This document shows, piece after piece, positions 5,334 to 29,393 of a stretch of DNA of 64,000 nt (the stretch's first letter is position 1; each line of letters opens with the position of its first letter). Source of the stretch: Syntrophales bacterium (GTDB lineage: Bacteria > Desulfobacterota > Syntrophia > Syntrophales > UBA2210); contig CAXXKT010000001.1 in assembly GCA_963662405.2 (NCBI GenBank), positions 1,120,001-1,184,000 on the forward strand, in the 5' to 3' direction. The notes under the pieces are model-generated. The model was not told the DNA's origin and did no database searches. It saw nothing but the letters and a program-made list of their open reading frames with translations. The translations under genes were made by a program, and so were the position numbers.

Positions 5334-5424
5334 TATACCATATCGGGAGGAACGCCTTGAGGCCTTCCTCCCGGGTTGGGCAACTGGCGGAATAACGGTC
5401 TGAATTGCATGCCCGGATATTCCT

Positions 5425-6387
5425 TTACAGTGATCGTATCTCCTGTTTCATGAATATGATGTAGGAGATGGCAAAGCAAATCACGGTGATGGCGATAAGC
5501 GAAAGGATATGAGGTAATACGATGAACAGGCTCTGCAGCAATGACAGGGGCCTCTGGAATCGCTCCAGTGACATCCGCTCAATCGGTCCGATCATGACGA
5601 ACTGTCGGGTCGTTTTCCGTGTCGGATCGATCACGATAGATGTGGCGTCGTTATAAAGCTTCATAGGGGAGAGGAGGGATACATTCCTCTGTATGGCTAA
5701 CCGTTTCAACATGAGTTCGGGATTTTGCTGCCCCTGAGCATCCATGGGAACCATGACGCTCGCGGTCACGCTGGCACCGATGGAGATAAAGAAGGAGAAG
5801 AAAATCCAGACCGCAAGGGTGGCAAGGGCTGACGTCGCGACACCTCTGAAAAGGATCGAAAAGAGGATGCTGGCACCGAGCCAGAAGGAAATATAGACAA
5901 TACTGATCACCAAATAAAGGATGATCCGCAGTATCTCTTCCGGACCGGGCACCACACCGATCAGTTTCAACCCGAGGCCGGTCACCACCAGGACGATGGC
6001 GACGAGCATTATGGAGATCGTGGCTACTCCCGCCAGGAATTTCCCGTTGATAATGGAATCACGGTAGATCGGTTGTGACACAAGGGTGCTGAGCGTTCCG
6101 CTGCTCCGTTCACGATTGATGGCATCGAAGCCCAGCAGAAGCCCGATCAACGGACCAAAAAAGGCAACGAACTGTACCAGCGAGAAGACCGATCCGGTGG
6201 AGGTAAAGAGCATGAGAAAGACAAAATTGGGCTTAGCCACCCCGGCCAGTTCTTCCTTGAGCCCCATCCCCGCCATATAGGTGGCGATCAGACTGGCCAT
6301 AGCGATCAACGCAAAAATGATGGTAAAGCGATAGCTGCTGAAGTGATCGGACAGCTCTTTCTTGACAATAGATCCGATGCCGGTCAT
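5425..6387 (-). CDS. ABC-2 type transporter permease
   Basis: 'LGFDAINRERSSGTLSTLVSQPIYR...GKF' signature; multiple TM segments. Confidence 0.88.
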   Translation of the reverse strand: MTGIGSIVKKELSDHFSSYRFTIIFALIAMASLIATYMAGMGLKEELAGVAKPNFVFLMLFTSTGSVFSLVQFVAFFGPLIGLLLGFDAINRERSSGTLSTLVSQPIYRDSIINGKFLAGVATISIMLVAIVLVVTGLGLKLIGVVPGPEEILRIILYLVISIVYISFWLGASILFSILFRGVATSALATLAVWIFFSFFISIGASVTASVMVPMDAQGQQNPELMLKRLAIQRNVSLLSPMKLYNDATSIVIDPTRKTTRQFVMIGPIERMSLERFQRPLSLLQSLFIVLPHILSLIAITVICFAISYIIFMKQEIRSL

Positions 6388-12557: not shown

Positions 12558-13319
12558 CTATGACGGCACGGGCTGCTTGCCGCTGTTTTGCAATAGAAAC
12601 TCTTTTATCTTTGTTTTTCCGATGAGGACCCGCTTTTCCATGCTGTCGTTTACGAAGAGGACCGGTATCTCGTAGATGTGCATCCCTTCCAGGAGGTCAA
12701 AATGCTCGTCCGCATCCACCTTGTTTACAACGATATCACATGATTTACAGAGATGCTCTATTTCCTCACAGCTCGAGCAGGAAGTGCTGTAAAAAAGTGT
12801 CAGGTAACTCTCGTCGAGATGGTCTCCCAGGTTTTCCGTGCTGGTCACGGTTGGTAATATCAGGTAAAAACAGGCGAAAACGACGGCAAAACCGGCAAAA
12901 CCGGTGACGGCTTCCCATCGTCCCGACAGGAGCCAGATGATACCGAGTAGAACAAACAGGGCAAAAACCGACAGACAAAACCAGCAGGGGGCATAAACCC
13001 GGAATGCCTGATACCCGACGAGAAATCCTTCGGAGGCAATTGCCGCGCAGAGGATCGTGCTGATAAGTTTGTTCTTGTATCGGCTCAATAAAAGTGATCC
13101 TGGCCGTGACAGGACGGCGAGGAACGAAAAGACCAGAAGACCCGGTATGAGGAGCGATATGTCACCGTACCGGGCGTATCTCGCAACGGTTTTACAACCC
13201 TCTGATGTACACAGGCTGGTTTGCCAGAGGTTCATAGCGACCTCAATGAGGACAATGATGGTGCCGACAATACTCAGTATAAAAAAGACAACCGGTGTGG
13301 TTTTCTCTTTCCCGTTCAT
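12558..13319 (-). CDS. VKOR-like membrane thiol oxidoreductase fused to a thioredoxin/glutaredoxin-like domain
   Basis: TM-C(X4)C (CTSEGC)-TM-TM-CWFC-TM-TM, then 'LFYSTSCSSC...EIPVLFV'. Confidence 0.6.
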   Translation of the reverse strand: MNGKEKTTPVVFFILSIVGTIIVLIEVAMNLWQTSLCTSEGCKTVARYARYGDISLLIPGLLVFSFLAVLSRPGSLLLSRYKNKLISTILCAAIASEGFLVGYQAFRVYAPCWFCLSVFALFVLLGIIWLLSGRWEAVTGFAGFAVVFACFYLILPTVTSTENLGDHLDESYLTLFYSTSCSSCEEIEHLCKSCDIVVNKVDADEHFDLLEGMHIYEIPVLFVNDSMEKRVLIGKTKIKEFLLQNSGKQPVPS

Positions 13320-13543
13320 CCTGGAACTCCTTTGCTCGAACAGCTTTAACAAAAATCGATACGGACCTGACGTGAGACGCCCCTGGCGCCGTTTTGCCGG
13401 TTAGTCCGTAATGAGCGGAGTGCATTATACCAAAAAAGTTAAGGCAGGCAAGGATAAAGACAGGATAAAGACAACGGTCCCGTGCCAGTGGTCATGCCGG
13501 ACGGATGGGTGCGTTATGATGGCGGTGTGGTTCGCCGATATTG

Positions 13544-14185
13544 TCAGTAGTTGTGTCCCGGTCGCTGGGGAAGGGTAAAGACGCAGGCGGCAAATCGTCC
13601 ATCATGGCTCAGGCTGAGGATCACGGGAAGCACCTCCTCTTTTATCCGGACCTCAGGGGGCGCCAGACCGTAATCCTCTTTCGGACGGATAATCGCGATT
13701 TCCTCCGGGTCGTTACCGAACAGGACCGACAGATTCTGCCTTGTCATGTGACGGACGAAGTCCGATTCGTCGGTGGATACACCGTGGTCCCGGGGTATCT
13801 CTCGGACATCCCATATGATCTTGTTGATTGTTTCGTGGTCCGCCGCACCGATACAGTGAACGTAATCGTCCGTGAATGTGAAACTGACGGAGATCGTACC
13901 ACGGGGGGTATGAACGGTCCCCGATTCCGGAACAGAATGATTGTGAGAAGACAACTTCACCTCATACCGTCTCGGGGCGGAAGAGACAGCAGGAGAACAC
14001 CTTCGCACCACCTTGTATGCCGTCTCTTTTCCCGCCCACAGCCGCCAGAGCATCCTGTCCGGATCGTCGTTGTCCCGAATCAGCCGTTGCTCATCCGGCG
14101 TGAACACCCTGCTCATGAAGCGGATATCGCGACTTTTCCCTGCTGTCCGAGGATCCGTAAGATCCACGATATCGTTGCCGATCAA
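13544..14185 (-). CDS. 4'-phosphopantetheinyl transferase
   Basis: IGNDIVD, RVFTPDE, LWAGKETAYK and LSLSHD; TTG start with GGAGG RBS. Confidence 0.88.
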   Translation of the reverse strand: MIGNDIVDLTDPRTAGKSRDIRFMSRVFTPDEQRLIRDNDDPDRMLWRLWAGKETAYKVVRRCSPAVSSAPRRYEVKLSSHNHSVPESGTVHTPRGTISVSFTFTDDYVHCIGAADHETINKIIWDVREIPRDHGVSTDESDFVRHMTRQNLSVLFGNDPEEIAIIRPKEDYGLAPPEVRIKEEVLPVILSLSHDGRFAACVFTLPQRPGHNY

Positions 14186-14912
14186 AGTACTCTTCCTCCA
14201 TGCGGGCTAGGTTCCCCACGATCTGCCGTGCGCAACTTCGCTGAGCCTTTAACCCCTGCCCGACCATTTCCGGAGAGAAGGGCTCAAGCTTCATGGTAAA
14301 GCGCTCACCGAACCGAGGGAGGCCACTGTACGTCTCCTGGCCGTCCCCTCTGAGATAAATACACATTACCCGGCAATCGGGGGCGTTGGCCACCAGGCGC
14401 CCGACACCGTATGAGGCATTCTCCACGTTTACCCTGCCTGTCCGGGAACGTCCCCCTTCCGGGAATATGAGGAGGCTGTTCTTCTTCTGCATGAGATAGA
14501 GGCACCGATCGAAGGTGGATCTCATATGTGTCCTGTCGCCGCCGCGGTTGATGGGGATGCACTTCGACAGGTAGCAAAAGACCGTCAGGAAGATATTCTT
14601 CTGAAAATTGGCTCGTTCCGGGAGATTCCAGGGGAGCCGTCGATAGCGCACCAGGTACCCGAAGAGGGGCGCCATGGCGCACTGAAGGATAAGAGAATCG
14701 ATCATGGTCAGGTGATTCGGACAGATAATCCACGGTCCCGTATGTTCCCGAAAGAGCAATCTGACCGTTCTTCGAACCTGCCTCAGATCGCGGACCCGGT
14801 ACCGCATCAGCCGGAGAAACAGATACGTGCTGGTACCGACAACCAGGGTAGACAGCCATCCCAGGATGGCCTGCAACCTATGGAGATAACGTTTCGTCCG
14901 GTTCATGGTCAT
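14091..14912 (-). CDS. Lysophospholipid/PlsC-family acyltransferase
   Basis: NHLTMID (HX4D), PINR and FPEGGRSR motifs; N-terminal TM. Confidence 0.9.
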   Translation of the reverse strand: MTMNRTKRYLHRLQAILGWLSTLVVGTSTYLFLRLMRYRVRDLRQVRRTVRLLFREHTGPWIICPNHLTMIDSLILQCAMAPLFGYLVRYRRLPWNLPERANFQKNIFLTVFCYLSKCIPINRGGDRTHMRSTFDRCLYLMQKKNSLLIFPEGGRSRTGRVNVENASYGVGRLVANAPDCRVMCIYLRGDGQETYSGLPRFGERFTMKLEPFSPEMVGQGLKAQRSCARQIVGNLARMEEEYFDRQRYRGSYGSSDSREKSRYPLHEQGVHAG

Positions 14913-14915
14913 GGC

Positions 14916-15164
14916 CTATTGCAACTTTCCCTTGACGATGTCGACGGCATTCCCGATCGTTCGAATCTGATCGGCATCATCATCGTCGATCTCGATGTCG
15001 AAGGCATCTTCACACTTGATAATCACATCAACCAGGCGCGCGGAATTGACCTTCAGATCGTCGAGGATATGGGTGTCATTTGTCACACCTTCCAGCAGTG
15101 CCGGATCCTTGACGTACGGTCTCAAGATATCTACCATTTCTTTAAAGATCTGTTGTTCTTCCAT
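14916..15164 (-). CDS. Acyl carrier protein (atypical NSA motif)
   Basis: 82 aa, acidic; DDLKVNSARLVDVIIKCEDAFDIEIDD...IRTIG. Confidence 0.9.
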   Translation of the reverse strand: MEEQQIFKEMVDILRPYVKDPALLEGVTNDTHILDDLKVNSARLVDVIIKCEDAFDIEIDDDDADQIRTIGNAVDIVKGKLQ

Positions 15165-15206
15165 TTTCTTTCTCCTTATGATGTATTTTTATATGTTTGA
15201 TTGTGC

Positions 15207-16484
15207 TTATGCCGCGTCCCACTTCTTGACGATGAGGCAGCTGTTCACATCCCCGAAACCGAAACTGGCCTTGGCGATGATGCTCAACTCAGGGTATTCC
15301 ATGGTCTCCCGCGGGATCTTTTCCGTAAAGGCCTCAATCTCGGGATGGATATCCTCACAATTGATGGAGGGATGGAGAAAACCCTTGTGCAACTGGAGAG
15401 CAACAGCCACCGTCTCGATGGCCCCCGCTGCACCGAGACAGTGCCCGACCATCGATTTTGTCGAGTTGATGTAAGGAAAGGTGTCGGGGGCCCGATTCAG
15501 GGCCTTTGACCAGTTCCAGACCTCTGAAGGGTCTGCGAAGGTCGCGGTGAGATGACCGCTGATGGCGTCGATATCTGCGGGAGTTATCCCCGCATCGGCT
15601 ATCGCCCCCCTGATGCAGGATTGAACCCCTGCCGGATTCGGCGCCGTCATGCTGCCGCCGCCTCGCTGACCGCCGCAGTTGACGACCCCGCCCCCGATTT
15701 CCGCGTAGATCCGCGCACCCCGCGTTCGTGCCGCTTCCAGCTCTTCGAGGACCAGGACGGCCGCCCCTGCGCCGGGAACAAATCCGTTTGCCGTGGCGCT
15801 CATCGGTCGTGAACCCTTCTCGGGATGATCGTTGAATTTGCGGGCGATGACCCGCATCGAATCGAAACCGGCCCAGATGTAGGGAGAAGGTCCTTCGGAC
15901 CCCCCCGCCAGCATGCGTGTTGCCTGCCCGGTTCGTATCCTCCACAGGGCATCGACGATCGCCTCTGTTCCGGTACTGCAGGCGGAGGAATTCGAGGTCA
16001 CCTGATTTCCGAGACCCAGGAGACCTCCCACGCGTGCGCTCGTCCCGCTGTTCATCACCTGCTCGACAATCGTGCTTCCCATCCGCCGTGTTCTCCCCGC
16101 ATTGACCATGGGGACCACCGTTTCGGCGATCGTGTCCATCCCGCCGATACCGCACCCGAGGATGGCTCCCGTTTCCCAGTCCACCGGATCGTTGTCCCCG
16201 GGGATCTCGAAGCCCGCATCGCGCCACGCATCCACGGCGGATATGGAAACATACCCGATGTTCTGGTTCATGGAGAGGCGCTCCTCTTCATTGAAGTAAT
16301 CGGGCAGGATCTCCTCGATCCCCTCCGGTGCCCCTCCGATCTGGCAACCGAACTTCAGTTCCTCCAGTCGGGGAAAAAACCGGACTCCCGAACGCCCCTC
16401 GCGCAGGGCCTGTTCGAACGTATCAAGCCCATGGCCGTTCGGCGCTACCACTCCCATACCTGTAATCACAACTCTACGTTTCAT
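15207..16484 (-). CDS. fabF: Beta-ketoacyl-ACP synthase (FabF/FabB family)
   Basis: RRVVITGMG; Cys-His-His triad in SACSTG, GHLTAT and KSMVGHCLGAAG; SFGFG. Confidence 0.88.
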   Translation of the reverse strand: MKRRVVITGMGVVAPNGHGLDTFEQALREGRSGVRFFPRLEELKFGCQIGGAPEGIEEILPDYFNEEERLSMNQNIGYVSISAVDAWRDAGFEIPGDNDPVDWETGAILGCGIGGMDTIAETVVPMVNAGRTRRMGSTIVEQVMNSGTSARVGGLLGLGNQVTSNSSACSTGTEAIVDALWRIRTGQATRMLAGGSEGPSPYIWAGFDSMRVIARKFNDHPEKGSRPMSATANGFVPGAGAAVLVLEELEAARTRGARIYAEIGGGVVNCGGQRGGGSMTAPNPAGVQSCIRGAIADAGITPADIDAISGHLTATFADPSEVWNWSKALNRAPDTFPYINSTKSMVGHCLGAAGAIETVAVALQLHKGFLHPSINCEDIHPEIEAFTEKIPRETMEYPELSIIAKASFGFGDVNSCLIVKKWDAA

Positions 16485-16950
16485 GAGAATCAACCCCTCT
16501 GCCGGTCAGTGTCCCGGAACAGATAAGTTCGCCGTGTTCCCGTTCCATACTGACCTTTGTTTTCAGGTTTCCCCTGCGGAGATAGACCTTTTCGCCTCTG
16601 ATGACGACCCTCTCGCCGGGACGGACGATGGCGTGAAACTCACACTCGTCGGCCATGACGAAGAGGGTAACCATGTGGCGAATGCTTTCAGGCAACACAC
16701 CCTGGAGTATCAGCAGGTATATCCCGAAGGCGACGACCCCCGTCTGCGCCATCGTCTCGATCAGGATGACCCCGGGGGTGACGGGTCGTCCGGGGAAATG
16801 CCCCCGGTAGAAGTACTCGTTCTCCCGGAAGCGGTATGTCCCGACTATGTGATCCTCGTCCATCTCCAGGATGTCATCGATAAAGCGAAACGGAGGTCTC
16901 TGGGGCACCATCTCCAGGACCTGCCGTACCGTTTCGGAATCAACCGCCAT
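16474..16950 (-). CDS. fabZ: 3-hydroxyacyl-ACP dehydratase, FabZ-type
   Basis: PQRPPFRFID and GHFPGRPVTPGVILIETMAQ (His/Glu dyad). Confidence 0.85.
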   Translation of the reverse strand: MAVDSETVRQVLEMVPQRPPFRFIDDILEMDEDHIVGTYRFRENEYFYRGHFPGRPVTPGVILIETMAQTGVVAFGIYLLILQGVLPESIRHMVTLFVMADECEFHAIVRPGERVVIRGEKVYLRRGNLKTKVSMEREHGELICSGTLTGRGVDSHET

Positions 16951-17692
16951 ACAGCCCTCCGTTTACATGAATCACGCTCCCCGTAACGTACGTACCCCTG
17001 CGGGAGAGGAAGGCAACCACGTCTGCCACCTCTTCGGGACGTCCCATCCGCCCCAGGGGAATATTCTGGGCGATACCCTGCCGCACCTCGTCGGAGAGTT
17101 CCGTGGTCATCGCCGTATCGATGAATCCCGGCGCCACCGAGTTGACGAGGATATTACGCCCCTCCAGCTCTTTGGTGAGTGATTTGGTGAAGGCATCGAG
17201 GGCCGCTTTCTCCATCGTGTACGGTATCTGCCATTTGTTGCCGGTGTGGCCCACTACACTGGATATATTGATGATCCTGCCCTCCCCTGTCCGCAGCATG
17301 AAGAGGCGCAGTATCCGTTTGGTGAGATACCAGGTCCCGCGAAGCAGAGAGCGCTGCAGGTCGAACTCCTCGATCTTCATCGAGTTGATATCGTTATTGA
17401 CTGATATGCCGGCGTTATTGACCAGGACATCCACCCGTCCCGCCTCCCTCTTGATCGTCTTGACCATCGCCTCTCCGTCATCAGGGTCGGCGATATCGGC
17501 CTTGAGGAGAAAGCCGTTTCCAATACGGGAAAGGACCTCTTGCGCCGGCCCCTCGCTTGTACGATAGTGGATGCCGACCCTGAACCCTTCACCGGCGAGG
17601 GCCTCGCAACACGCGGCACCGATCCCGGTCCCCCCTCCCGTAACAATCGCCACGGGTCTTGACTCTGCGTCTGTACTGGCTGATCGGTTCAT
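16940..17692 (-). CDS. fabG: 3-oxoacyl-ACP reductase (SDR)
   Basis: TGGGTGIG, NNAG, NISS, YTMEK (YxxxK), VAPGFIDTAMT, IPLGRMG and VNGGL. Confidence 0.88.
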   Translation of the reverse strand: MNRSASTDAESRPVAIVTGGGTGIGAACCEALAGEGFRVGIHYRTSEGPAQEVLSRIGNGFLLKADIADPDDGEAMVKTIKREAGRVDVLVNNAGISVNNDINSMKIEEFDLQRSLLRGTWYLTKRILRLFMLRTGEGRIINISSVVGHTGNKWQIPYTMEKAALDAFTKSLTKELEGRNILVNSVAPGFIDTAMTTELSDEVRQGIAQNIPLGRMGRPEEVADVVAFLSRRGTYVTGSVIHVNGGLYGG

Positions 17693-18285
17693 ATCTCCCT
17701 CTTGATAATGCCTCCCCGTGAATTGGAGGAGGGTTTTGGATAATCCGGATAGACGATCCCCTTGAAGATCCCCGTCCGGGCATTTTTGATGGTCATGATC
17801 AACTCGTCATCGACGAATACGGTGCCGTCACCGATGACGATGCTCGATCCGGAGTCCTTGAGATTCGAGAACCGTTTCACCTCGATTTCATACCGGACTA
17901 TCTGGTTATAGGGGCGTATCTGTCCATTGAAGACGATCTCCTCGCATCCCAGGGCCCTTCCGCCTCCCAGGCCACCCCTCCAGCAGCAGTAAAAACCAAG
18001 CAATTGCCAGATCGCGTCCACGCACAGGCACCCCGGCTGCACCGGGTCACCCGGCATGTGGCACTGAAAATACCAGGCGTCCATCCGGATGTCCTGCTCG
18101 GCCACGATGGTCCCTTTCCGTCCGTTCCCCAAAATTGAAAGGATCCGGTCAACCATCAAAAACGGCGGCGCGGGGAGCCGCGAGTCAAAAGATTCGGGCG
18201 GGTCGTCCACCAGTCGTCCGTAGGCGAAGGCAAGAAGATCGTTCAAGCAAAAGCTTTCCGTATTCATGAATTCAGTGTAATTCAA
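17689..18285 (-). CDS. fabA: 3-hydroxyacyl-ACP dehydratase/isomerase, FabA-type
   Basis: LPAPPFLMVDRI and WYFQCHMPGDPVQPGCLCVDAIWQLLGF (His/Asp dyad as in FabA), GRALG. Confidence 0.88.
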   Translation of the reverse strand: MNYTEFMNTESFCLNDLLAFAYGRLVDDPPESFDSRLPAPPFLMVDRILSILGNGRKGTIVAEQDIRMDAWYFQCHMPGDPVQPGCLCVDAIWQLLGFYCCWRGGLGGGRALGCEEIVFNGQIRPYNQIVRYEIEVKRFSNLKDSGSSIVIGDGTVFVDDELIMTIKNARTGIFKGIVYPDYPKPSSNSRGGIIKREI

Positions 18286-18312
18286 CGTTTCCTCACAATC
18301 CGTTCAGTATCC

Positions 18313-19299
18313 TTATTGCACCACCCTGAGCATTGCCCGGACCCAGGTAAGCCCTCCCCCCACCAGGGCCAGCGCGATATGGTCGCCGGGACGCAGTTCA
18401 TCCCAGTGCTGGCTCAGCGTGCTGGGTGCCCCCGAACACCCGGCGTTGCCGTGCTCCACGATATTGTACCAGTGATTTTCTTCGGATATCCCGCACCGTT
18501 CGCACGTGGTTTGCAGCATCCCGAAGTTCGCCTGGTGCCCGATGAATTTGAATCTCCCCCCATCCACCGGGTACATCTCCTGTAATTCCCTGACTAGTTG
18601 TGTCGTCCTGCGTATCGCGAACCCCTGGACGGCGCTCCCCTCCTGGTCAAAGTGTCCGACGCGGGGGACGCGGACCTTGTCCCATGAAGAGGGACTCGAA
18701 TCGCAGAAGAAGGCCTCGCAGACTATCCGCGAGGGGACGGAGGCGGAGACGACGGCGGCACTGGTCCCGTCACCGAAGAGGGGCGCGGCCCGCCGGTCCG
18801 AATAATCGATGACCTTGGTCACATTTTCCGGCTGGACAATCAGGACATAGGGCGGAAGCGTTTCCGGCCTCATGTCGGAAAGAAACTTCAGCTGCATCCC
18901 GAAGGTAGAGCAGGCGGAATTCAGGTCGAAGCAGGGGACGTCGATCCCGATCTTCCCCGCTACCGTGGCTGCCTCCGCCGGGGTTATATAGTCGGACGCC
19001 GAACCGCCGGATATCACCATCCCGATATCTGCAGCTCTGAGCCCCGCCCTCTCGAGCGCGTGCTGCGCCGCGAGCGCTCCCGTCTGGGCGTTCGTATACA
19101 GCGCAGCCTCCGTGGCGGCCCGGAGATCCCTGTTCTTTGTTGCCTTGATATAATCCAAAGGGAGACCCGTCCGGCGGGTACGGATGCCGACCCGCTCAAG
19201 GATCCATTCCTCGCTGCTCCCGATGTCCAGTTCCTCCAGGAACCGGTTTGTGATCACATTCTCCGGGTGAAAGTGTCCCAACCCATGAAGATACAGCAT
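18313..19299 (-). CDS. fabH: Ketoacyl-ACP synthase III (FabH-like)
   Basis: WILERVGIRTR; Cys-His-Asn triad in SACSTF, HQAN and HGNAG; LFGDG and GGGLTW. Confidence 0.85.
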   Translation of the reverse strand: MLYLHGLGHFHPENVITNRFLEELDIGSSEEWILERVGIRTRRTGLPLDYIKATKNRDLRAATEAALYTNAQTGALAAQHALERAGLRAADIGMVISGGSASDYITPAEAATVAGKIGIDVPCFDLNSACSTFGMQLKFLSDMRPETLPPYVLIVQPENVTKVIDYSDRRAAPLFGDGTSAAVVSASVPSRIVCEAFFCDSSPSSWDKVRVPRVGHFDQEGSAVQGFAIRRTTQLVRELQEMYPVDGGRFKFIGHQANFGMLQTTCERCGISEENHWYNIVEHGNAGCSGAPSTLSQHWDELRPGDHIALALVGGGLTWVRAMLRVVQ

Positions 19300-19301
19300 C
19301 C

Positions 19302-20501
19302 CTATACCAGCTCCCGTCCGATGATCATGTCCTGCACCTCTCTGACGCCCTCATAGATATCAATGATATGGGCGTCCCGTGCCAGCTTGGAGATCTCGTA
19401 CTCCGCCATGAACCCGTACCCACCGTGCAGGTGAAGGCCCTCCGTGGCGCAGAAGAGGGCCGCCTCCGCGGCGACGTTTTTAGCCAGGGAGGCGTATACA
19501 CCCCGATCGTCCGCCCCTTCCTGGACCTTGGCCGCCGCCTTCATCAGGGCGAGGTCCGCCAGCTCGACCCGCTTCCACATCGCCACCAGGGCGTCGCGCG
19601 CCACCGGCATGTCGGAGATCCTCTGCCCGAACTGTTTGCGTTCCTTCGTGTATTCCAACGTAATATCAAAGGCGCGTTTTGCGAGGCCGACACCGATCGC
19701 CGCTACCATGGGGCGCGCGTAATCGAGAACATCCACGGCGTATTTGAAGCCGAGCCGTCGGTTCCCGATGATCTGATAGTCCTCGATGACGACATCTTCG
19801 AAGGTCACCGTCGCCGTATTCGAGAGACGCTGTCCGAGCTTGTCCTCGGGTTTTCCCGTCGTGATCGTGCCTCCCCCCGGGAGGGATATCACCCTCCCCC
19901 CCGTGGGTTGGGCGGTGATATCGGCCTCGGAAATCATACTGTACGGTATGATGACACAGGCCATCATCAGGCCCTTGGGACTTCCCGTCTTGCAGAAAAC
20001 GGTAAATTGGGAGGCATGCGAGGCATTGGTGATAAAACACTTCTCGCCGTTGAGGATATATTTTCCGTTGTCTCCCTTGCGTATGAAGGTTGTCATGGCG
20101 GAATTGTCGGAACCCGCCCCGGGTTCCGTCAGACAGAAGGCCGCAATAATGGGGGCCTCGACAAAGGGCGTAAGGAAGGCCTTTTTCTGCTCATCCGTCC
20201 CGTGCTGCGTGATCACCACATTGGCAAGATCATTACACATCGTTGATGTAGAGATGCCGGTGTCGCCGTAGGACAGATCCCTGACGATCAGGGCAGATGA
20301 GATGATATCCACCTCAAACCCCTTCACCGATTCGGGAACGGAGAGATTCATCAGCCCCATCTCCCACGCCTTTTCGATAAGATCTGCAGGGAAGACATGC
20401 CCTTGCTCCCGGTCCATAATATCGGGAGTTATTTCATTTTTGACGAATTTCCGGACCGTTTCCACGTATATCTTCTGGTCGTCGGTAAGATTGAAATCCA
20501 T
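19302..20501 (-). CDS. Acyl-CoA (possibly acyl-ACP) dehydrogenase
   Basis: FCLTEPGAGSD, LNGEKCFITNA, ERKQFG, LHGGYG and IYEG (catalytic Glu); embedded in the fab operon. Confidence 0.92.
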   Translation of the reverse strand: MDFNLTDDQKIYVETVRKFVKNEITPDIMDREQGHVFPADLIEKAWEMGLMNLSVPESVKGFEVDIISSALIVRDLSYGDTGISTSTMCNDLANVVITQHGTDEQKKAFLTPFVEAPIIAAFCLTEPGAGSDNSAMTTFIRKGDNGKYILNGEKCFITNASHASQFTVFCKTGSPKGLMMACVIIPYSMISEADITAQPTGGRVISLPGGGTITTGKPEDKLGQRLSNTATVTFEDVVIEDYQIIGNRRLGFKYAVDVLDYARPMVAAIGVGLAKRAFDITLEYTKERKQFGQRISDMPVARDALVAMWKRVELADLALMKAAAKVQEGADDRGVYASLAKNVAAEAALFCATEGLHLHGGYGFMAEYEISKLARDAHIIDIYEGVREVQDMIIGRELV

Positions 20502-20599
20502 GATATGCTTATTCTCCTGAGCAATAGGGGCTCTTTACAGAAACCGATCCGCTTGAGGCGCACCCTTCTCCTGCGGACCAATGTGGCAGCGGCTTCTTG

Positions 20600-21565
20600 T
20601 CATGGTTGTTTTTGATCGATGCCGGCCTTTTGAAAGACCCTCTGGGCGCCTGAAAAGGTCGTAATGGACTGACACTCCAACTGCATAGTCTTGAAAAATT
20701 TTCTGAGGGGCCAGCCGGGACCGATCTCGATGACGGAACCGGCGACAGCCGAGAGGGCTTCCATGTTCTTCCTCCACTGGACCGCATGACTCAGCTGTGA
20801 AACCAGCATGTCAATAATCTCTTTACTGCTGTTCGCGTGGAAGTAACCGGTCACATTTGCCGTCACCCGCGTCGCACCGTCGGGCTGCAGTCGCTCCACG
20901 ACCCCGCACAATACTTCCCGAAATCGCCCCTCGATTGTTTTCATAAAGCGACTGTGGAAGGGGGCGCTGACATTCAGACGGACGAAACGAAACGATGTAT
21001 TATCAATGAATACAGCCCTTATCTTCTGTTCCGCTTCGGAGATTGCCTGTGCCTCACCGCTGATAACGATCTGATTGGTTGAGTTGTCGTTTGCCAGATC
21101 GATCGGGGACCCCTCCAGCGCCTCAAGGAGCCCGTCTGCATCCAGATCATCCGCGATAACGGCCGCCATCGCCCCCATCCCGACCGGTGTCGCCTCCTGC
21201 ATGAGGCGGCCCCGTGTCTGGACCGTCTTCAGGGCATCGGGGAAGGGGAATACCCCCGCGGCGACCAGGGCGGTATATTCGCCGAGGCTGTGCCCCCCGA
21301 AATATGAGGGGCTGAAGTCATAGAGCGACTGAAGTCCCCGAAACATGGCTATTTCGGTCGCCAGGATACAGGGCTGGGAGTATTCAGTCAGATTCAGCCG
21401 TTCGTCTTCCTCGAAACACCTGGCGATCACATCCCATCCCAGGGCGTCGGAGGCCTCATGGTAGGTGTCCCGGCTTACCGGGATTGCATCGTAGAAATCC
21501 TTTCCCATCCCGGGGCGCTGTGAGCCTTGGCCCGGAAAAACGACTGCGGTGTTCCGATCATCCAT
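20600..21565 (-). CDS. fabD: Malonyl-CoA:ACP transacylase
   Basis: FPGQGSQ, GHSLGEY, RG.LMQ and LNVSAPFHS. Confidence 0.93.
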   Translation of the reverse strand: MDDRNTAVVFPGQGSQRPGMGKDFYDAIPVSRDTYHEASDALGWDVIARCFEEDERLNLTEYSQPCILATEIAMFRGLQSLYDFSPSYFGGHSLGEYTALVAAGVFPFPDALKTVQTRGRLMQEATPVGMGAMAAVIADDLDADGLLEALEGSPIDLANDNSTNQIVISGEAQAISEAEQKIRAVFIDNTSFRFVRLNVSAPFHSRFMKTIEGRFREVLCGVVERLQPDGATRVTANVTGYFHANSSKEIIDMLVSQLSHAVQWRKNMEALSAVAGSVIEIGPGWPLRKFFKTMQLECQSITTFSGAQRVFQKAGIDQKQP

Positions 21566-21613
21566 TCTCGCTTTTCACTTCCTTCCCGTGACATGCTGTA
21601 TCCGCATCACCTA

Positions 21614-21629
21614 CGCATATTACATGCCA
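21614..21629 (-). promoter_or_regulatory. Sigma54 (-24/-12) promoter of the fab-like operon
   Basis: Minus strand TGGCATGTAATATGCG (GG-N10-GC), about 50 nt upstream of the fabD ATG. Confidence 0.7.
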
Positions 21630-22160
21630 TCTGCTCACCCCCTGTCGCATATCGAACCAGGGGACTGTAATTCTTTCCAAATCCGCGATTTGTGCCATCC
21701 ATCCGGAGAAGCAGGCAGAAGAGATTGGGTGCGTAACACCCTTCGCGGTCAGTAACGGATTACACAGTCGCATGCCATGCCGTCGCTCCGGTGCGGATTG
21801 TCATTACAATCCCGATGTCCGTTGATCCATACCCTGTCATTCTGTTGCTCCGTAACTTGCCACACAGCGCATTCTCTGGTATCATCCGCGCACTTTTGGT
21901 AATATCGGAATTGGGCACGTCAGTGCCATGCCAGAAACCAAGCCGCGCTTTCATCACAATGGGCGAAATGCACAAAACCGTTTTTCAGTCGTTCTGTTTT
22001 TTCGGTCGAAAAAGGCGATTACGCCATAAAATCATTTTGCTGAGCACCAATGGCCTTTCAGGTAATTTGAGAATGCTTGTGCGAAAAAAAAGAAGTCGTC
22101 AGGTTGACTGAATGGCAATCTCGTAACTCGTGCTCGGGCTTACATAATGGAGAGCCTATC

Positions 22161-24320
22161 ATGGGTCAGGAGTTGAGCGAAGGGCTTACGAACAGAGTAA
22201 ACATCGTGCAGGACAACGCACGAAACGAACAGAGGTTGGAAGCAGCGTCAGATCTCTCGCAGAATGAAGAGAGAGTTCTTTTTGAGGCCTTACCCGTTGG
22301 CTTTTGCATCATCCATAACGGCCGATTCAACTATGTCAATTCTTGGTTGTCTCATATGTTAGGATACGAGCACTCCGGACAATTGATCGGAAAATCATTC
22401 CTCGATATCATTTACCCTTACGACAGAGATCGGGTTGCACGTGTAATGCAAAAAGGGAAGGATCACAATGCCCCAGAGCAAGGTATCTGCCGTGTACTCA
22501 AAAAAGACGGATCTGTTATCTGGGGAAGTCTAGGCGGACGAAGCATGATTCATAACGGAAAATATTCATATGCGGGATATATAACCGAAGTCACCATTTT
22601 GAGAGAAATGGAAGAATCTTTGAAAAAATATAAGACCGTGATCAATGAAATTGAAGACAGTATTGGCGAAACAGACATCAAGGGAAATCTACTTTTTATC
22701 AACGATGCCGTATGCAGACTCCGGGGATATACAAGGGAAGAAATGATCGGCAGAAATTATACCTCCTTCATTGACAAAGAAGGGGCAAAACGCTTACGAA
22801 AAGCCTTTAATACCGTGTATAAAACGGGGATTCCCGGCCGATATGTTCATGAAGTGATACTGAAAGACGGTACGCGTAGGATCGCTGAAGATTCCATCTC
22901 TTTGATCCGAGATGCGGACGGAACCACCACAGGGTTTCGATCGGTACAACGCGATGTAACCGACCGTGAGGAAGCAGGGACAAAGCTGATTGAACAACGC
23001 GCCCGTCTTGAGGCCATATTCAGAAGCGTACAAGATGCTATTATCACCGTAACCCCAGATTTGCGGGTCATTGCGGCCAATACCGCAACGGAGAACATCT
23101 GCGGGATCAAGGTGGAAGAGATCGAGGGAAAGCTATTTCCGCACTGTCTGAACCAGTGTAGTCGATCGTGCTGTGAGGTTTTGCGGCAGACCCTTGAAAA
23201 GAAAATACCCATTCAAGAATATCATATCGAATGCAATTCCCAAAGACGCCATCACCAGGTCGCAAGTGTGAGCAGTTCTCCACTTCTGGATCCGGAGGGC
23301 AGGTTTATGGGGGCCGTCCTGGTGATCCGAGATATTACCCTGCTCAGAAATCTGGAGCGGGAGTTGCACGAGAGACATCAATTTCAAAATATCATCGGCA
23401 AAAGTCAGAAGATGCAGGACATCTACCGGCTCTTAGAAGACTTGGCCAGCCTGGAGACCACGGTTTTAGTCACGGGAGAAAGTGGAACAGGAAAGGAAGT
23501 CATCGCCAAGGCGCTTCACTACAGCGGTCATCGCGCCGGCAAGCCGTTCGTCAAGGTAAGCTGTTCGGCACTGGCGGAAAACCTCTTGGAAAGCGAACTG
23601 TTCGGTCATGTCAAAGGGGCGTTTACAGGGGCCATTCATGACAAGCAGGGACGATTCCAGGCGGCTGATGGTGGAACAATCCTGCTGGACGAGATTGGTG
23701 ACGTTTCACCTCTCATCCAGCTCAAGCTTTTACGGGTTTTGCAGGATAAGGAATTTGAGCGAGTGGGGGAGACCATCACACGGAAGGTTGATGTCCGTGT
23801 GATTGCATGCACCAACAAAAACCTCAAAGAAAAAGTGAAAAATGGGGAATTCCGAGAAGACCTGTACTATCGTTTGAAAGTAGTTGAAATTCCTCTCCCT
23901 CGACTCCGCGAAAGGCTCAAAGACGTACCGTTGCTTGTCGATCACTTCTGCCGCATCTTTAATAAGAGTTTTCATAAAAAGATCGATGGGGTATCCAGTG
24001 ATGTCCTCGCTTGCTTCATGAATTATCCCTGGCCGGGGAATGTGCGGGAGCTTGAACATGCTGTCGAATGTGCGTTCGTGCTCTGCCACGAGAGGGTTAT
24101 CACCCTTGATCACTTGCCCCCGGAAATCAAAAACTACAAGGGGCCGACGCGGGCCACTGTCCCTGACATTCACTTGGAAAAGCGGGAAGAAGCCCGGAAT
24201 ATTCTGGATGCTCTCAACGAAACGTTGTGGAACAAGACTAAGGCTGCGCACCTACTTGGTATAAGTCGGCAGACGCTATATCGGAAAATTTACGCATATG
24301 AAATTATGAGCAAGGTGTAA
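22161..24320 (+). CDS. Sigma54-dependent enhancer-binding protein with three PAS domains and Fis-type HTH
   Basis: PAS repeats; GESGTGKE, ESELFGHVKGAFTGA, LLDEIG, FREDLYYRL, WPGNVREL and LGISRQTLYRK. Confidence 0.93.
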   Translation: MGQELSEGLTNRVNIVQDNARNEQRLEAASDLSQNEERVLFEALPVGFCIIHNGRFNYVNSWLSHMLGYEHSGQLIGKSFLDIIYPYDRDRVARVMQKGKDHNAPEQGICRVLKKDGSVIWGSLGGRSMIHNGKYSYAGYITEVTILREMEESLKKYKTVINEIEDSIGETDIKGNLLFINDAVCRLRGYTREEMIGRNYTSFIDKEGAKRLRKAFNTVYKTGIPGRYVHEVILKDGTRRIAEDSISLIRDADGTTTGFRSVQRDVTDREEAGTKLIEQRARLEAIFRSVQDAIITVTPDLRVIAANTATENICGIKVEEIEGKLFPHCLNQCSRSCCEVLRQTLEKKIPIQEYHIECNSQRRHHQVASVSSSPLLDPEGRFMGAVLVIRDITLLRNLERELHERHQFQNIIGKSQKMQDIYRLLEDLASLETTVLVTGESGTGKEVIAKALHYSGHRAGKPFVKVSCSALAENLLESELFGHVKGAFTGAIHDKQGRFQAADGGTILLDEIGDVSPLIQLKLLRVLQDKEFERVGETITRKVDVRVIACTNKNLKEKVKNGEFREDLYYRLKVVEIPLPRLRERLKDVPLLVDHFCRIFNKSFHKKIDGVSSDVLACFMNYPWPGNVRELEHAVECAFVLCHERVITLDHLPPEIKNYKGPTRATVPDIHLEKREEARNILDALNETLWNKTKAAHLLGISRQTLYRKIYAYEIMSKV

Positions 24321-25989: not shown

Positions 25990-26343
25990 ACCATCCCGCC
26001 TTTCGAATCCGCTTCCGTGAAAACCCTATAACAACACCAGCCAGGACCTTTTATCGATGAATATGTGATTACACTGTCTGCCAAACAGACGAGGTGGCGG
26101 CCCACAATGGTGTACAGCGAAAGAACCGCGTCAACGCGATCTGCCGGACGGCGCTTGAGCCGTCAACGAATCTTTTTCCCGTACAATCGACCGACTTTTT
26201 CGGAAAGATCATTTCACGCAAAATAACACGGCTCCTGTCGTTCTTGTAAAGCCACGGGGTGTATGATAGCATTTCCATGGTAAGATCTTGTGTGGACCTA
26301 TTCACTTGTTGAGCCCTACCGGTGTATCGGAGGAGCACTACAT

Positions 26344-27870
26344 ATGGAGACCTTTGCCTTGGGGGCGATCAGCCTGACGATTGCGGCATCGTTGCTCATA
26401 AAGAAAAACAAATCGCTGCTCCATGTCACTTTCGCCGTTCTCTGCCTGGGACTATTCCTTGAGAAGACCGGGACCTTCTTCGGCGATATTTTCGCCGCCG
26501 ATTTCTGGGCGACTATTCGTGCCTTGGGTTTCCTGATCGTTCCGCCCTTTCTGATTGCCTTCAGCCGGATATTTCTCGGTAACGAAGAGATACCAACACG
26601 TTTGCCGATCTATGCGGGTCTTATCAGCCTGATCATCGCCGTCGCCTATTTCCCCTTCCTCTTTCACTGGCGTTACACCGACATTATCCTATACACCTAC
26701 CTCGGCTTCGCCGTACTCTATTGTTTTGGTACACTCCTGCGCACCGTGTATCACGCCGAAGACGGGATCGCGCGGAAGCGGTTCGCCTATATCGTTGCAG
26801 CATGTGCCGTCTCAGCCCTTGTAAGTATGACGAACATCGTGCATGTCTACCATCCCGGAGTCCCCCTGCTGTCGGATATCGTCCTTGCGGGTTTGATCTA
26901 TTTCATCCTCATCATCATCACCTACCCCAGACTCCCCGAGCTGTATGAAATCATGGTCCGGGCGGCGATCGTTTTTCTCCTGATCATCTTTGCAACGGTC
27001 GTGTTCTATCTTGTACTCGGTATCTTCGGCGGGGACGAGGCAATTCCAGCCTTTACCCTGATCTTCATGTCATCATTTCTCATTGTCATCTTCATAGACC
27101 CCGTAAAACTGATCCTCAAAAGGGCCGGGATGTATTTCTTCCCCGAAGGGAAAGGATCCCTCAACTCGCTTTATACCATCGATGAAGAGGTAGAGCGTGA
27201 AAAATCACTCCTCCTGGAAGAGATGGCGAGTACGCTCGCACACGAGATCCGGAACCCCCTCGGCTCGATTAAGGCCGCAGCTCAATACCTGAAATCTGAC
27301 AGTGAGTCCGAGGAAAACCAGGCGATTTTTGATGTGATTACGGCAGAAATCGATCGCCTGAACAATGTGGTTTCTCGCTTTCTCACCTATGCCAAGCCGG
27401 AGACGATCGAACCGGATACCCGGAGTATCGGGGATATCCTGGAGCGGATCATCGCCCTGATAACGACACGGCATCTCCCCGCAGGGATCGTTGTCAGGCG
27501 AAACATCCCGCAGGATCTTTCCCCGGTCTGGGTTGACGGTGAACAGATAATGCAGGCGATCCTGAATATTGTCCTGAACGCCGTGGAGGCGATGCCGGAC
27601 GGGGGTACCCTCACGCTGTCGGCGCGAGACATCGATGAAGAGGAAAACCCGCGTGTTGAAGTGGTGATCGGTGATACGGGCGAGGGAATCACCAGTACAG
27701 CGATGCGCCGTATTTTTAAACCGTTTTATACCACCAAGGAGAAGGGGACCGGAATTGGCCTCGCCATCTCTCACAAGATCATCAAGGCCCATGGCGGAAC
27801 CATTGCCGTGACCTCCTCCGCGGGGCATGGAGCTGTCTTCCGCATCCGGATACCGGCATATCCGGTATAG
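26344..27870 (+). CDS. Membrane-bound sensor histidine kinase (multi-TM N-terminus)
   Basis: H-box LAHEIRNPL, N-box NIVLNAVEA, DTGEGI, F.PFYTTK and GTGIGL; GGAGGAG RBS. Confidence 0.93.
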   Translation: METFALGAISLTIAASLLIKKNKSLLHVTFAVLCLGLFLEKTGTFFGDIFAADFWATIRALGFLIVPPFLIAFSRIFLGNEEIPTRLPIYAGLISLIIAVAYFPFLFHWRYTDIILYTYLGFAVLYCFGTLLRTVYHAEDGIARKRFAYIVAACAVSALVSMTNIVHVYHPGVPLLSDIVLAGLIYFILIIITYPRLPELYEIMVRAAIVFLLIIFATVVFYLVLGIFGGDEAIPAFTLIFMSSFLIVIFIDPVKLILKRAGMYFFPEGKGSLNSLYTIDEEVEREKSLLLEEMASTLAHEIRNPLGSIKAAAQYLKSDSESEENQAIFDVITAEIDRLNNVVSRFLTYAKPETIEPDTRSIGDILERIIALITTRHLPAGIVVRRNIPQDLSPVWVDGEQIMQAILNIVLNAVEAMPDGGTLTLSARDIDEEENPRVEVVIGDTGEGITSTAMRRIFKPFYTTKEKGTGIGLAISHKIIKAHGGTIAVTSSAGHGAVFRIRIPAYPV

Positions 27871-28004
27871 AGATCGTGATGGTCTCTGGTGAAAAGAAGG
27901 CGTCTGCTCATCAGGAAAAGACTCTTCGGGAGCTTGACAGGGCTCTGTTCCTGTAATAGATTCAACCCTCGATAGAAGGCGGATATGTCACGCGTGAGAC
28001 CCAC

Positions 28005-29393
28005 ATGGCCACTATAAAACCAATGGAAAAGAAGACCGTTCTGGTCGTTGATGATGAAAAGAGTATGCGATTGGTTTTGTCCGCCATGCTCAAAAAGGAA
28101 GGGTACGGAGTTGCGACCGCCGCGGATGGCTTCGAGGGGCTCGATCTCCTCAAGAAGACCGATGTCTCTGTTGTTATCACCGATCTGAAGATGCCCCGGC
28201 TTGGGGGTATCGGTCTTTTGAACCGCGTCGTCGATAAATATCCCGCCCTGCCGGTGATCATTGTCACCGCCCACGGGACCATATCCAATGCCGTGGAAGC
28301 GGTCAAGAAGGGGGCCTTCGACTACATCACCAAGCCCTTCGACCAGGAAGATCTGAAGAACGTGATAGCCAAGGCGGTCAAGACCAAATCATTCAATGAC
28401 CGCGAACTGGTGTTTGATTCCCGGGACGATGATCAGTATGCCATTATCGGGACCAGCGGACCGATGCGGGAGATATTCGATATCATCAAAACGGTCGCAC
28501 CGACCCCGACGACCATATTGATCAACGGGGAGACGGGGACGGGGAAGGAACTCGTCGCCCGGGCGATCCATGAGAACAGTCCACGGAAGGATCATCCCTT
28601 CATCAAGATCAACTGTGCGGCGATCCCTGAAAATTTGATGGAGAGCGAGCTGTTCGGATACGAGAAGGGGGCCTTTACCGGGGCAGCCAACAGGAAACTC
28701 GGGAGATTCGAACAGGCCGACACGGGGACGCTCTTTCTCGATGAGATCGGTGACCTGCCGAAGGACATGCAGGCAAAGCTTCTCCGGACGATCCAGGACC
28801 GGGAGTTCGAGCGGGTCGGAGGGGTGCAGACTATCAAGGTCGATGTCAGGCTTATTGCCGCGACGAACAGGGATCTCATTCAGGACGTGCAGGACAAACA
28901 CTTCCGGGAGGATCTTTACTATCGGATTAATGTCCTGCCGATTATCCTCCCGGCCCTTCGGGAGAGGAAGGGCGATGTCCCGCTTCTCGTCGATCATTTC
29001 ATCGATAAATTCAACAGGAAGTTGAATCGGCACGTGCGGCGGGTCGAACCCGCGGTGGAACAGTTTTTTTGCGAGTATGACTGGCCCGGCAACATCAGGG
29101 AGATGGAGAATCTTTTGGAAAGGCTCATCCTTCTGGCAAACGATGATACCGTGCGGTACGGACAGCTCCCCACCGATATGTTTACCCCCTCTTCCGATGA
29201 TGTGATCACGCCCGAGTTGAAGCAGGGGTCTATCAAGGATATCGTCAAGGGACAGGCCGAGGCGGTGGAGAGTCATATCATCGCACGGGTACTCGACCAA
29301 TGCGGCAAGAATGTGACGCGGGCGGCCGATCGATTGGGGATCAGTCGCAAGGGGCTGCAATTGAAGATGATCAAATACGGGTTGAGAAAATAA
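28005..29393 (+). CDS. Sigma54-dependent response regulator (NtrC/AtoC family)
   Basis: REC domain (VVDDE, DLKMP), GETGTGKE, GAFTGA and C-terminal HTH. Alternative start at 28023. Confidence 0.93.
   Translation: MATIKPMEKKTVLVVDDEKSMRLVLSAMLKKEGYGVATAADGFEGLDLLKKTDVSVVITDLKMPRLGGIGLLNRVVDKYPALPVIIVTAHGTISNAVEAVKKGAFDYITKPFDQEDLKNVIAKAVKTKSFNDRELVFDSRDDDQYAIIGTSGPMREIFDIIKTVAPTPTTILINGETGTGKELVARAIHENSPRKDHPFIKINCAAIPENLMESELFGYEKGAFTGAANRKLGRFEQADTGTLFLDEIGDLPKDMQAKLLRTIQDREFERVGGVQTIKVDVRLIAATNRDLIQDVQDKHFREDLYYRINVLPIILPALRERKGDVPLLVDHFIDKFNRKLNRHVRRVEPAVEQFFCEYDWPGNIREMENLLERLILLANDDTVRYGQLPTDMFTPSSDDVITPELKQGSIKDIVKGQAEAVESHIIARVLDQCGKNVTRAADRLGISRKGLQLKMIKYGLRK

Follow-up and report, generated by a model that had tools for sequence, protein, structure and literature searches.

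In this study, we analysed a gene cluster for fatty-acid synthesis on a 64,000-nt stretch of a Syntrophales genome (Desulfobacterota; GenBank assembly GCA_963662405.2, contig CAXXKT010000001.1, positions 1,120,001 to 1,184,000 of the forward strand). This whole stretch is called the window here, its coordinates are used throughout unless a contig or locus is named, and the genome, 100% complete in three contigs, is labelled G000. Ten genes on the minus strand (13544-21565) form an operon in which an acyl-CoA dehydrogenase (ACAD) gene stands between fabD and fabH (Table 1). A preliminary description of this DNA had given their order as fabD-ACAD-fabH-fabA-fabG-fabZ-fabF, followed by genes for an acyl carrier protein (ACP), an acyltransferase and a phosphopantetheinyl transferase (PPTase), and had called them tightly packed. 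Family scans agree with this order, all ten genes are intact and co-oriented, the widest intergenic gap is 98 nt, and neighbouring genes overlap at four junctions. Residue alignment bore out the two dehydratases that it had named, a FabA type with His/Asp and a FabZ type with His/Glu, and it was also right that the operon contains neither plsX nor an enoyl-ACP reductase gene of the FabI, FabK, FabL or FabV family.

Table 1. Genes and regulatory features of the operon and its surroundings (window coordinates)
Feature	Position	Strand	Basis or remark
Sigma-54 -24/-12 promoter box	21615..21629	-	64 nt above fabD start; GG-N10-GC pattern
FabD, malonyl-CoA:ACP transacylase	20600..21565	-	TIGR00128 247 bits, under cut-off 261
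ACAD, MCAD-like (MCAD, medium-chain acyl-CoA dehydrogenase); candidate enoyl-ACP reductase	19302..20501	-	Family scan, alignment, predicted fold
FabH	18313..19299	-	Triad Cys130/His255/Asn285; sole FabH found in genome
FabA-type dehydratase/isomerase (His/Asp)	17689..18285	-	PRK05174 above cut-off; 46% identity to E. coli FabA
FabG-type 3-oxoacyl-ACP reductase	16940..17692	-	Family scan
FabZ-type dehydratase (His/Glu)	16474..16950	-	Family scan, residue alignment
FabF/FabB-type ketosynthase, separate clade	15207..16493	-	33% identity to E. coli FabF and to FabB
ACP, dedicated	14916..15164	-	Family scan; likely attachment site Ser41
PlsC-like glycerolipid acyltransferase	14091..14912	-	PF01553
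PPTase, dedicated	13544..14185	-	PF01648
PAS-domain sigma-54 activator, probably not cognate	22077..24320	+	Lies between operon and sensor pair
Membrane histidine kinase, likely cognate sensor	26290..27870	+	Orthologues divergent from fabD in related loci
Receiver/sigma-54 activator, likely cognate activator	27960..29393	+	Orthologues divergent from fabD in related loci

With a discrete ACP, transacylase, ketosynthases, ketoreductase and dehydratase, all with intact catalytic residues, the operon has the components of a fatty-acid synthase of type II (FAS II). The attachment serine of the ACP sits in a non-canonical Asn-Ser-Ala context, which is invariant in 12/12 aligned copies and may explain the presence of a private PPTase; two more PF01648 genes lie outside the operon. 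Elsewhere in the genome (contig C1, 684956-691496), a third ACP and a second PPTase are clustered with genes that by eye appear radical-SAM-like, phosphate acyltransferase-like and acetate-kinase-like. A PDB sequence search with the PlsC-like protein gave no match.

The ACAD has a three-domain fold (predicted model with a local confidence score, pLDDT, of 93.8), and the nearest solved structures are MCADs, with a template-modelling (TM) score of 0.90 and 35-36% identity (PDB 3MDD, 1UDY, 1EGE and 1T9G were compared). The catalytic Glu is kept as Glu384 at the position of MCAD Glu376, and the motif was present in 25/25 loci. A pair of arginines, Arg248-Arg249, occurs in 119/119 members of the ACAD clade and in 0/124 other ACADs, together with many other clade-private residues; the clade-specific Arg387 lies beside the catalytic Glu, and the middle domain carries an insertion of ~17 residues. 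In the alignment to MCAD, the clade arginines flank what we take to be the thioester entrance. An acidic ACP would dock at this place, and the arginines may serve that purpose, while the private residues may also reflect common descent. When the ACAD dimer was predicted in complex with the operon ACP, the score was 0.32 (runs of 0.02, 0.39 and 0.32) against 0.00 for the best control, on a scale whose mark is reached by 116/157 solved complexes and 2/215 mismatched pairs, with only 18/157 and both mismatches at 0.60 or below. The runs agreed in at least 70% of contacts, with a partner pLDDT of at least 84. Such a result lends weak support to a predicted binding of the operon ACP by the ACAD.

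The clade is isolated among the sequences searched (one full-length representative at 70% identity, fragments, one partial match at 48%, and other full-length matches at no more than ~42%). The possibility that its nearest outside relatives (41-44% identity) also belong to fab clusters was rejected for the 6 of 8 loci covered, which adjoin genes that look TetR/IclR-like by eye and no fab genes; these relatives include tandem two-domain ACAD proteins of ~770-800 aa (P0124-P0126, P0129-P0131). The best NCBIfam match of the ACAD is AcrC (263 bits, cut-off 640). We did not take this match as a sign of reaction direction, because an ordinary sister ACAD scores higher (438 bits).

To look for the missing reductase, the preliminary description had pointed to the rest of the genome, where either a canonical fabI, fabK or fabV or a second plsX-fabH-containing set might be found. 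No known enoyl-ACP reductase of the FabI, FabL, FabV or FabK family passed its cut-off in the operon or elsewhere in the genome, FabMG being outside this search. Neither FabI nor FabL was among the top five models of any of the 19 other short-chain dehydrogenases/reductases (SDRs) scanned in G000, and E. coli FabI as query gave nothing above 27% identity. The genome does contain seven paralogues of the FabK/nitronate monooxygenase (NMO) family, whose scores of 146-243 bits fall short of the FabK cut-off (453) and none of which adjoins fab genes. Since the only FabH found in the genome and its only two PF07977 (FabA/FabZ-family) genes lie in the operon, the operon is not an extra copy beside a complete housekeeping set. 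Judged by known genes, it is the only complete set for fatty-acid synthesis in G000, apart from the missing reductase. The earlier description of the operon needs two qualifications, as the seven FabK/NMO-family paralogues and a fabD-fabG-acpP-fabF set are encoded elsewhere in the genome.

This second set is truncated, lacking both plsX and fabH. It has the order DUF177-rpmF-fabD-fabG-acpP-fabF with rpmF directly before fabD (contig C3, 437435-441493), plsX-fabH having been cleanly lost from the place that they occupy in E. coli. At another site (contig C1, 78599-80449), lpxD adjoins lpxA, and fabZ, which E. coli retains between the two, has also been cleanly lost. The truncated set would add one C2 unit and reduce the product to a 3-hydroxyacyl-ACP for lipid A. 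PlsX and PlsY were not found in G000 by searches whose controls were positive, and a PlsB-like gene is present. Three MaoC-type hydratases adjoin ACAD or thiolase genes. Canonical AccA and AccD were not found in G000. In Smithella-type loci (L132, positions 4674-6146, and also L152, L153, L154 and L155), a carboxyltransferase gene is inserted between fabD and the ACAD gene; its product is PYC_OADA/HMGL-like, of the pyruvate carboxylase B or transcarboxylase 5S type. Malonyl-CoA may be supplied by transcarboxylation.

Additional evidence came from other Desulfobacterota. Using the operon FabF as query and scoring four candidates per genome, we identified this FabF type in 21 of 401 sampled genomes, including 13 Syntrophales and 8 other organisms, in which identity was 63-67%. 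In the same sample, the ACAD orthologue was present in 15/15 Syntrophales, among them all 13 with the FabF, and in 0 of those 8. All 8 outside clusters encode members of the same FabZ, FabF, ACP and PPTase families plus an SDR that is absent from the Syntrophales clusters. The gene for this SDR is located between fabD and fabH in L122, L128 and L129, which is exactly the place of the ACAD in the G000 operon. In L123 and L127 its neighbours are fabD and fabG, and in L124-L126 it immediately precedes fabH or fabG. The protein is of Rossmann type, and in 8/8 copies it has a Tyr-x6-Lys motif aligned to the catalytic pair of E. coli FabI, a spacing given for FabI and FabL in the main text of a review (PMC9260719). 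FabL was its top NCBIfam model in six copies and the second best in two (105-121 bits, cut-off 328), and four copies narrowly passed the Pfam enoyl-reductase cut-off. The SDR was not found in 61 Syntrophales (in a search that had no internal positive control), in a plasmid search or in a PDB sequence search (E<=1e-20). A quick FabF tree placed 24 ACAD clusters among the SDR clusters. This pattern fits a putative replacement of a FabL-like reductase by the ACAD in the Syntrophales ancestor.

Some further features of the two types of clusters were observed. Positions 50-51 are invariably Lys-Cys in the ACPs of ACAD clusters and variable in those of SDR clusters (L122-L129), which may reflect either co-adaptation or common descent. 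PPTases with long insertions (frames of 422-683 aa) are encoded in L128 (11034-13082) and L129 (11103-12368), and these SDR-type clusters have no plsC or fabG. Weak PF12241 enoyl-reductase matches resembling the slot SDR were noticed in G189, G266, G290 and G391, in which the operon FabF type was not found.

Within Syntrophales, we examined 60 relatives of G000. As related genomes are not independent and many are fragmented, the numbers are to be read as counts and not as statistical tests. The ACAD orthologue is present as a single copy in 49/60 relatives (67-88% identity), fabH is directly next to it in 48/49, and the 49th locus stops at a contig edge. All 48 relatives having a strong FabA match have the ACAD. 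The ACAD has thus been kept across the order in homologous clusters, which the preliminary description had regarded as a critical point. Gene content was compared in 23 Syntrophales loci, 11 of which had been selected via the ACAD itself: the ACAD, FabG, FabF, ACP, PlsC and PPTase were present in 23/23, and the ACAD was among the most conserved (mean identity 73%). The operon lacks fabA in 7/23 loci and fabH in 2/23, the ACAD being kept in all of these, and at least three genomes whose operon is without fabA encode FabA elsewhere. Because it stays when fabA leaves the operon, the ACAD is associated with the core cycle of elongation rather than with the isomerase. In G048 (100% complete, 8 contigs), the operon FabF is the sole PF00109 match at E<=1e-25. 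With regard to known reductases, FabI was detected in 1/61 genomes (G055), FabK above cut-off in 0/61, and FabV in 0/15 Syntrophales in a search with a positive control. FabK-like paralogues were found in 57/61 genomes, including all 11 genomes without the operon; at E<=1e-60 such a match is missing in the operon-bearing G003, G055, G056 and G059, of which G003, G056 and G059 also have no FabI.

Based on these gene arrangements, we consider it likely that Syntrophales synthesise fatty acids de novo with the enzymes of this operon, among which the ACAD would run backwards as enoyl-ACP reductase and receive electrons from the electron transfer flavoprotein (ETF) instead of NAD(P)H. The preliminary description had proposed either a new enoyl-ACP reductase or acyl-ACP desaturase coupled to ETF, or a cluster making a specialised unsaturated chain. 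The enoyl-ACP reductase is supported by the in-place swap with a FabL-like SDR, the order-wide conservation and the lack of a canonical reductase. The desaturase and the specialised chain fit less well, because no other complete de novo set is encoded in the genome, the sole ketosynthase found in G048 belongs to the operon, and the ACAD is kept where fabA is absent from it. In the proposed cycle, the PPTase would prime the private ACP and FabD would load malonyl; FabH or FabF would condense, and FabG would then reduce. FabZ and FabA would dehydrate, with FabA branching to cis-unsaturated chains, the ACAD would reduce trans-2-enoyl-ACP, and the PlsC-like enzyme would place the product into a glycerolipid.

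On the other hand, a number of observations weigh against this interpretation. The ACAD retains residues aligned with the Asp and Arg of MCAD, which we take to bind CoA; there is no etf gene in the operon; and the FabK-like paralogues, all below cut-off, might nevertheless have FabK activity. Together with the MaoC-type proteins, they could complete the truncated fab set, and with seven FabK/NMO-family proteins in G000 and such genes in 57/61 genomes, one of them could serve in trans. Two genomes, G280 and G327 (L150 and L151), keep fabD-ACAD with all motifs and are missing both the part from fabH to PPTase and the sigma-54 box, and their flanks match those of the full operon L051. The ACAD can therefore persist alone, and this fabD-ACAD pair may be a remnant or may point to a role that is independent of ACP. 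The ACAD might thus act on CoA esters only, for example by tuning the acyl-CoA primer of FabH or as a link to beta-oxidation, while a FabK-like paralogue would reduce enoyl-ACP in trans. Its MCAD-like nearest structures, its retention in these two genomes without carrier protein genes, and the absence of Phe from FabH at the position of E. coli Phe87, which presumably influences primer length, would all suit such a role. However, the FabK-like genes do not track the operon, as the genomes named above show, and none of the seven in G000 is near fab genes. Moreover, the ACAD is retained where the operon has lost fabH, and a role on CoA esters only would leave the swap with a Tyr-x6-Lys reductase unexplained. 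We therefore regard this alternative as unlikely.

Other points on the opposing side include G055, which carries the operon plus FabI, and G046 (L134, 96% complete), whose operon is without fabA and fabZ and in which no PF07977 gene was found genome-wide. The slot SDR is below the FabL cut-off, its reductase role being predicted from sequence, and the support for a single ACAD clade in the quick FabF tree was only 22. Finally, 11/60 relatives, several of them 95-100% complete, have no operon (G008, G013, G015, G016, G017, G023, G033, G043, G044, G047 and G058). A FabA/FabZ match is absent in 9 of these genomes and a single weak one is present in 2; no genome of the 11 yields a FabH match better than 2e-7 or a FabI, and canonical FabF is present in 11/11 and LpxA in 10/11. 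As these 11 relatives do without the operon, the order has another acyl-chain source, possibly uptake/scavenging or CoA-based synthesis, with PlsB.

Such organisms raise the question whether the operon serves as an accessory route to a special unsaturated chain. The ACAD would then be an acyl-ACP dehydrogenase, working in the manner of MbtN or FabX, and would supply FabA with 2-enoyl-ACP, and installing the product would fall to the PlsC-like enzyme. The private ACP, PPTase and acyltransferase, the presence of FabA and the control by a sigma-54 sensor (see below) agree with this idea, and ACAD-family enzymes that oxidise carrier-bound acyl groups are known (MbtN, RedW and PigA). However, the MbtN model gives the operon ACAD 37 bits against a cut-off of 700, the RedW and PigA models also match weakly and far below their cut-offs, and a cycle with a desaturase would still need a reductase. 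Furthermore, the ACAD is kept in the 7/23 loci whose operon has no fabA, the gene swapped with it bears a reductase motif, and the sole FabH, FabA and FabZ of G000 and the sole ketosynthase found in G048 lie in the operon. An accessory pathway of this kind appears quite improbable to us. It is very improbable that a cofactor precursor, for instance pimeloyl-ACP for biotin, is the product of the cluster, since a glycerolipid acyltransferase is encoded in 23/23 Syntrophales loci; in addition, no biotin gene was recognised among the open reading frames of the window and six loci, for which no family scan for biotin genes was made.

If the ACAD works as an enoyl-ACP reductase, it would need a source of electrons. 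Syntrophic fatty-acid oxidisers have to pay energy to dispose of high-potential electrons. There are two etf pairs in G000, and one of them, etfB-etfA, is followed by a gene for a membrane heme-b/FeS/CCG protein whose make-up suggests an ETF:menaquinone oxidoreductase (EMO-like). The positions of the ACAD that we take to form the ETF docking pocket stay hydrophobic in the MCAD alignment. Electrons could come from ETF reduced by beta-oxidation, or from menaquinol via the oxidoreductase encoded beside etfBA. A similar route has been described in the same order: Syntrophus aciditrophicus reduces enoyl-CoA by means of formate dehydrogenase, methylmenaquinone, ETF:methylmenaquinone oxidoreductase (EMO), an ETF of non-bifurcating type and an ACAD (PMC8805022). 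Both routes would deliver ETF electrons to an ACAD, and the etfBA-EMO-like locus of G000 is a further likeness; that of S. aciditrophicus is catabolic and uses CoA esters, whereas the one proposed here would be biosynthetic and use ACP. An ACAD-type enoyl-ACP reductase would in this way join an existing ETF route, using electrons that are otherwise costly to remove.

Regarding regulation, the preliminary description had noted a -24/-12 promoter upstream of fabD, and its conservation and a linked activator pair bear this out, the control itself being predicted from sequence. The box is the sole match to the pattern in the window and is unremarkable alone (chance mean 0.40; 34/100 shuffles have a match). 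By a custom score, a box was found at no more than 150 nt from fabD in 22/34 loci, two locus pairs among the 34 being duplicates, whereas shuffles gave 0.26 on average and at most 2. All 22 fall among the 29 Syntrophales loci and the 5 outside loci score 0, although by eye 4/5 of the latter carry a comparable box whose -12 element is a variant. Scans for sigma-70 promoters and terminators were at chance level only. An orthologue of the sensor kinase was detected in 42/49 operon-bearing relatives (in 25 of them on the same contig, within ~7 kb) and in 1/11 operon-less ones; G033 retains the sensor kinase without the operon, which may be an assembly gap. These data support a predicted sigma-54-dependent operon with a linked enhancer-binding activator. 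The sensor pair likely would turn the operon on when the external supply of acyl chains is low or when membrane adjustment is called for.

In G000, the PAS-domain activator and a binding-protein gene stand between the operon and this pair. We rejected the PAS-domain protein as the cognate regulator, as it has no orthologue in related loci and close paralogues elsewhere in G000. One such paralogue (69-89% identical; contig C1, 636304-638440) is split across three frames and is probably a frameshifted copy. Downstream of the operon, on the same strand (12558-13352), a membrane protein is encoded that contains Cys pairs, has a weak thioredoxin domain and looks VKOR-like by eye; it is not kept beside the operon in the loci viewed.

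Compared with the FAS II of E. coli with its FabA/FabB branch, the operon shares FabD, FabH, FabG, FabZ and FabA, along with a ketosynthase and ACP, and retains the catalytic residues. It differs in being a single operon under sigma-54 control that includes an ACP, a PPTase and an acyltransferase of its own, in its separate ketosynthase clade, in having no FabI and in the ACAD at the reductase slot. The ACAD shares its fold and Glu position with MCAD, but it is fixed in a biosynthetic operon, has the clade arginines and the insertion, and is proposed to run in reverse on an ACP substrate. ACAD-family reductases of enoyl thioesters are already known, such as the electron-bifurcating Bcd-EtfAB and CarCDE and the acryloyl-CoA reductase AcrC; these have etf genes of their own and use CoA esters as substrates, whereas no etfAB stands beside the operon ACAD. 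MbtN, RedW/PigA and Helicobacter FabX are flavoenzymes that also work at C2-C3 of a carrier-bound acyl group, but they oxidise it; FabX is of the NMO family and binds ACP via a basic surface (PMC8626469).

The bacterial enoyl-ACP reductases reviewed so far comprise FabI, FabL, FabV, FabK, FabL2, FabI2 and FabMG, all described as NAD(P)H-dependent SDRs or FabK-type TIM-barrel flavoproteins, and the term acyl-CoA dehydrogenase occurs 0 times in the main text of that review (PMC9260719). The reaction proposed for the ACAD is the same, and the protein belongs neither to the SDRs nor to the TIM-barrel flavoproteins. By its sequence, the ACAD is a member of both the ACAD family and a FAS II, and lies outside every known family of enoyl-ACP reductases. 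We found no description of the operon or of an ACAD-type enoyl-ACP reductase in the open-licence papers searched, and the main text of PMC8942843 does not mention acyl carrier protein or fatty-acid synthesis.

In a wider sense, lipid synthesis in these bacteria might be coupled to a respiratory redox loop by an ACAD-fold reductase that is fed by ETF or menaquinol and has displaced an ancestral FabL-like reductase, a tentative proposal to which we would give somewhat less than an even chance. The natural swap with the FabL-like gene offers a direct and cheap test of the role of the ACAD. If the proposed role is true, this universal step would gain a new structural class of enzyme, a reductase that has the ACAD fold and is fed by ETF, and a pathway hole would be filled throughout an order with a central place in methanogenic syntrophy. 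Every round of elongation would spare one NAD(P)H and consume high-potential electrons that are otherwise costly to dispose of, and membrane synthesis would thereby be tied to the energy bottleneck of Syntrophales cells.

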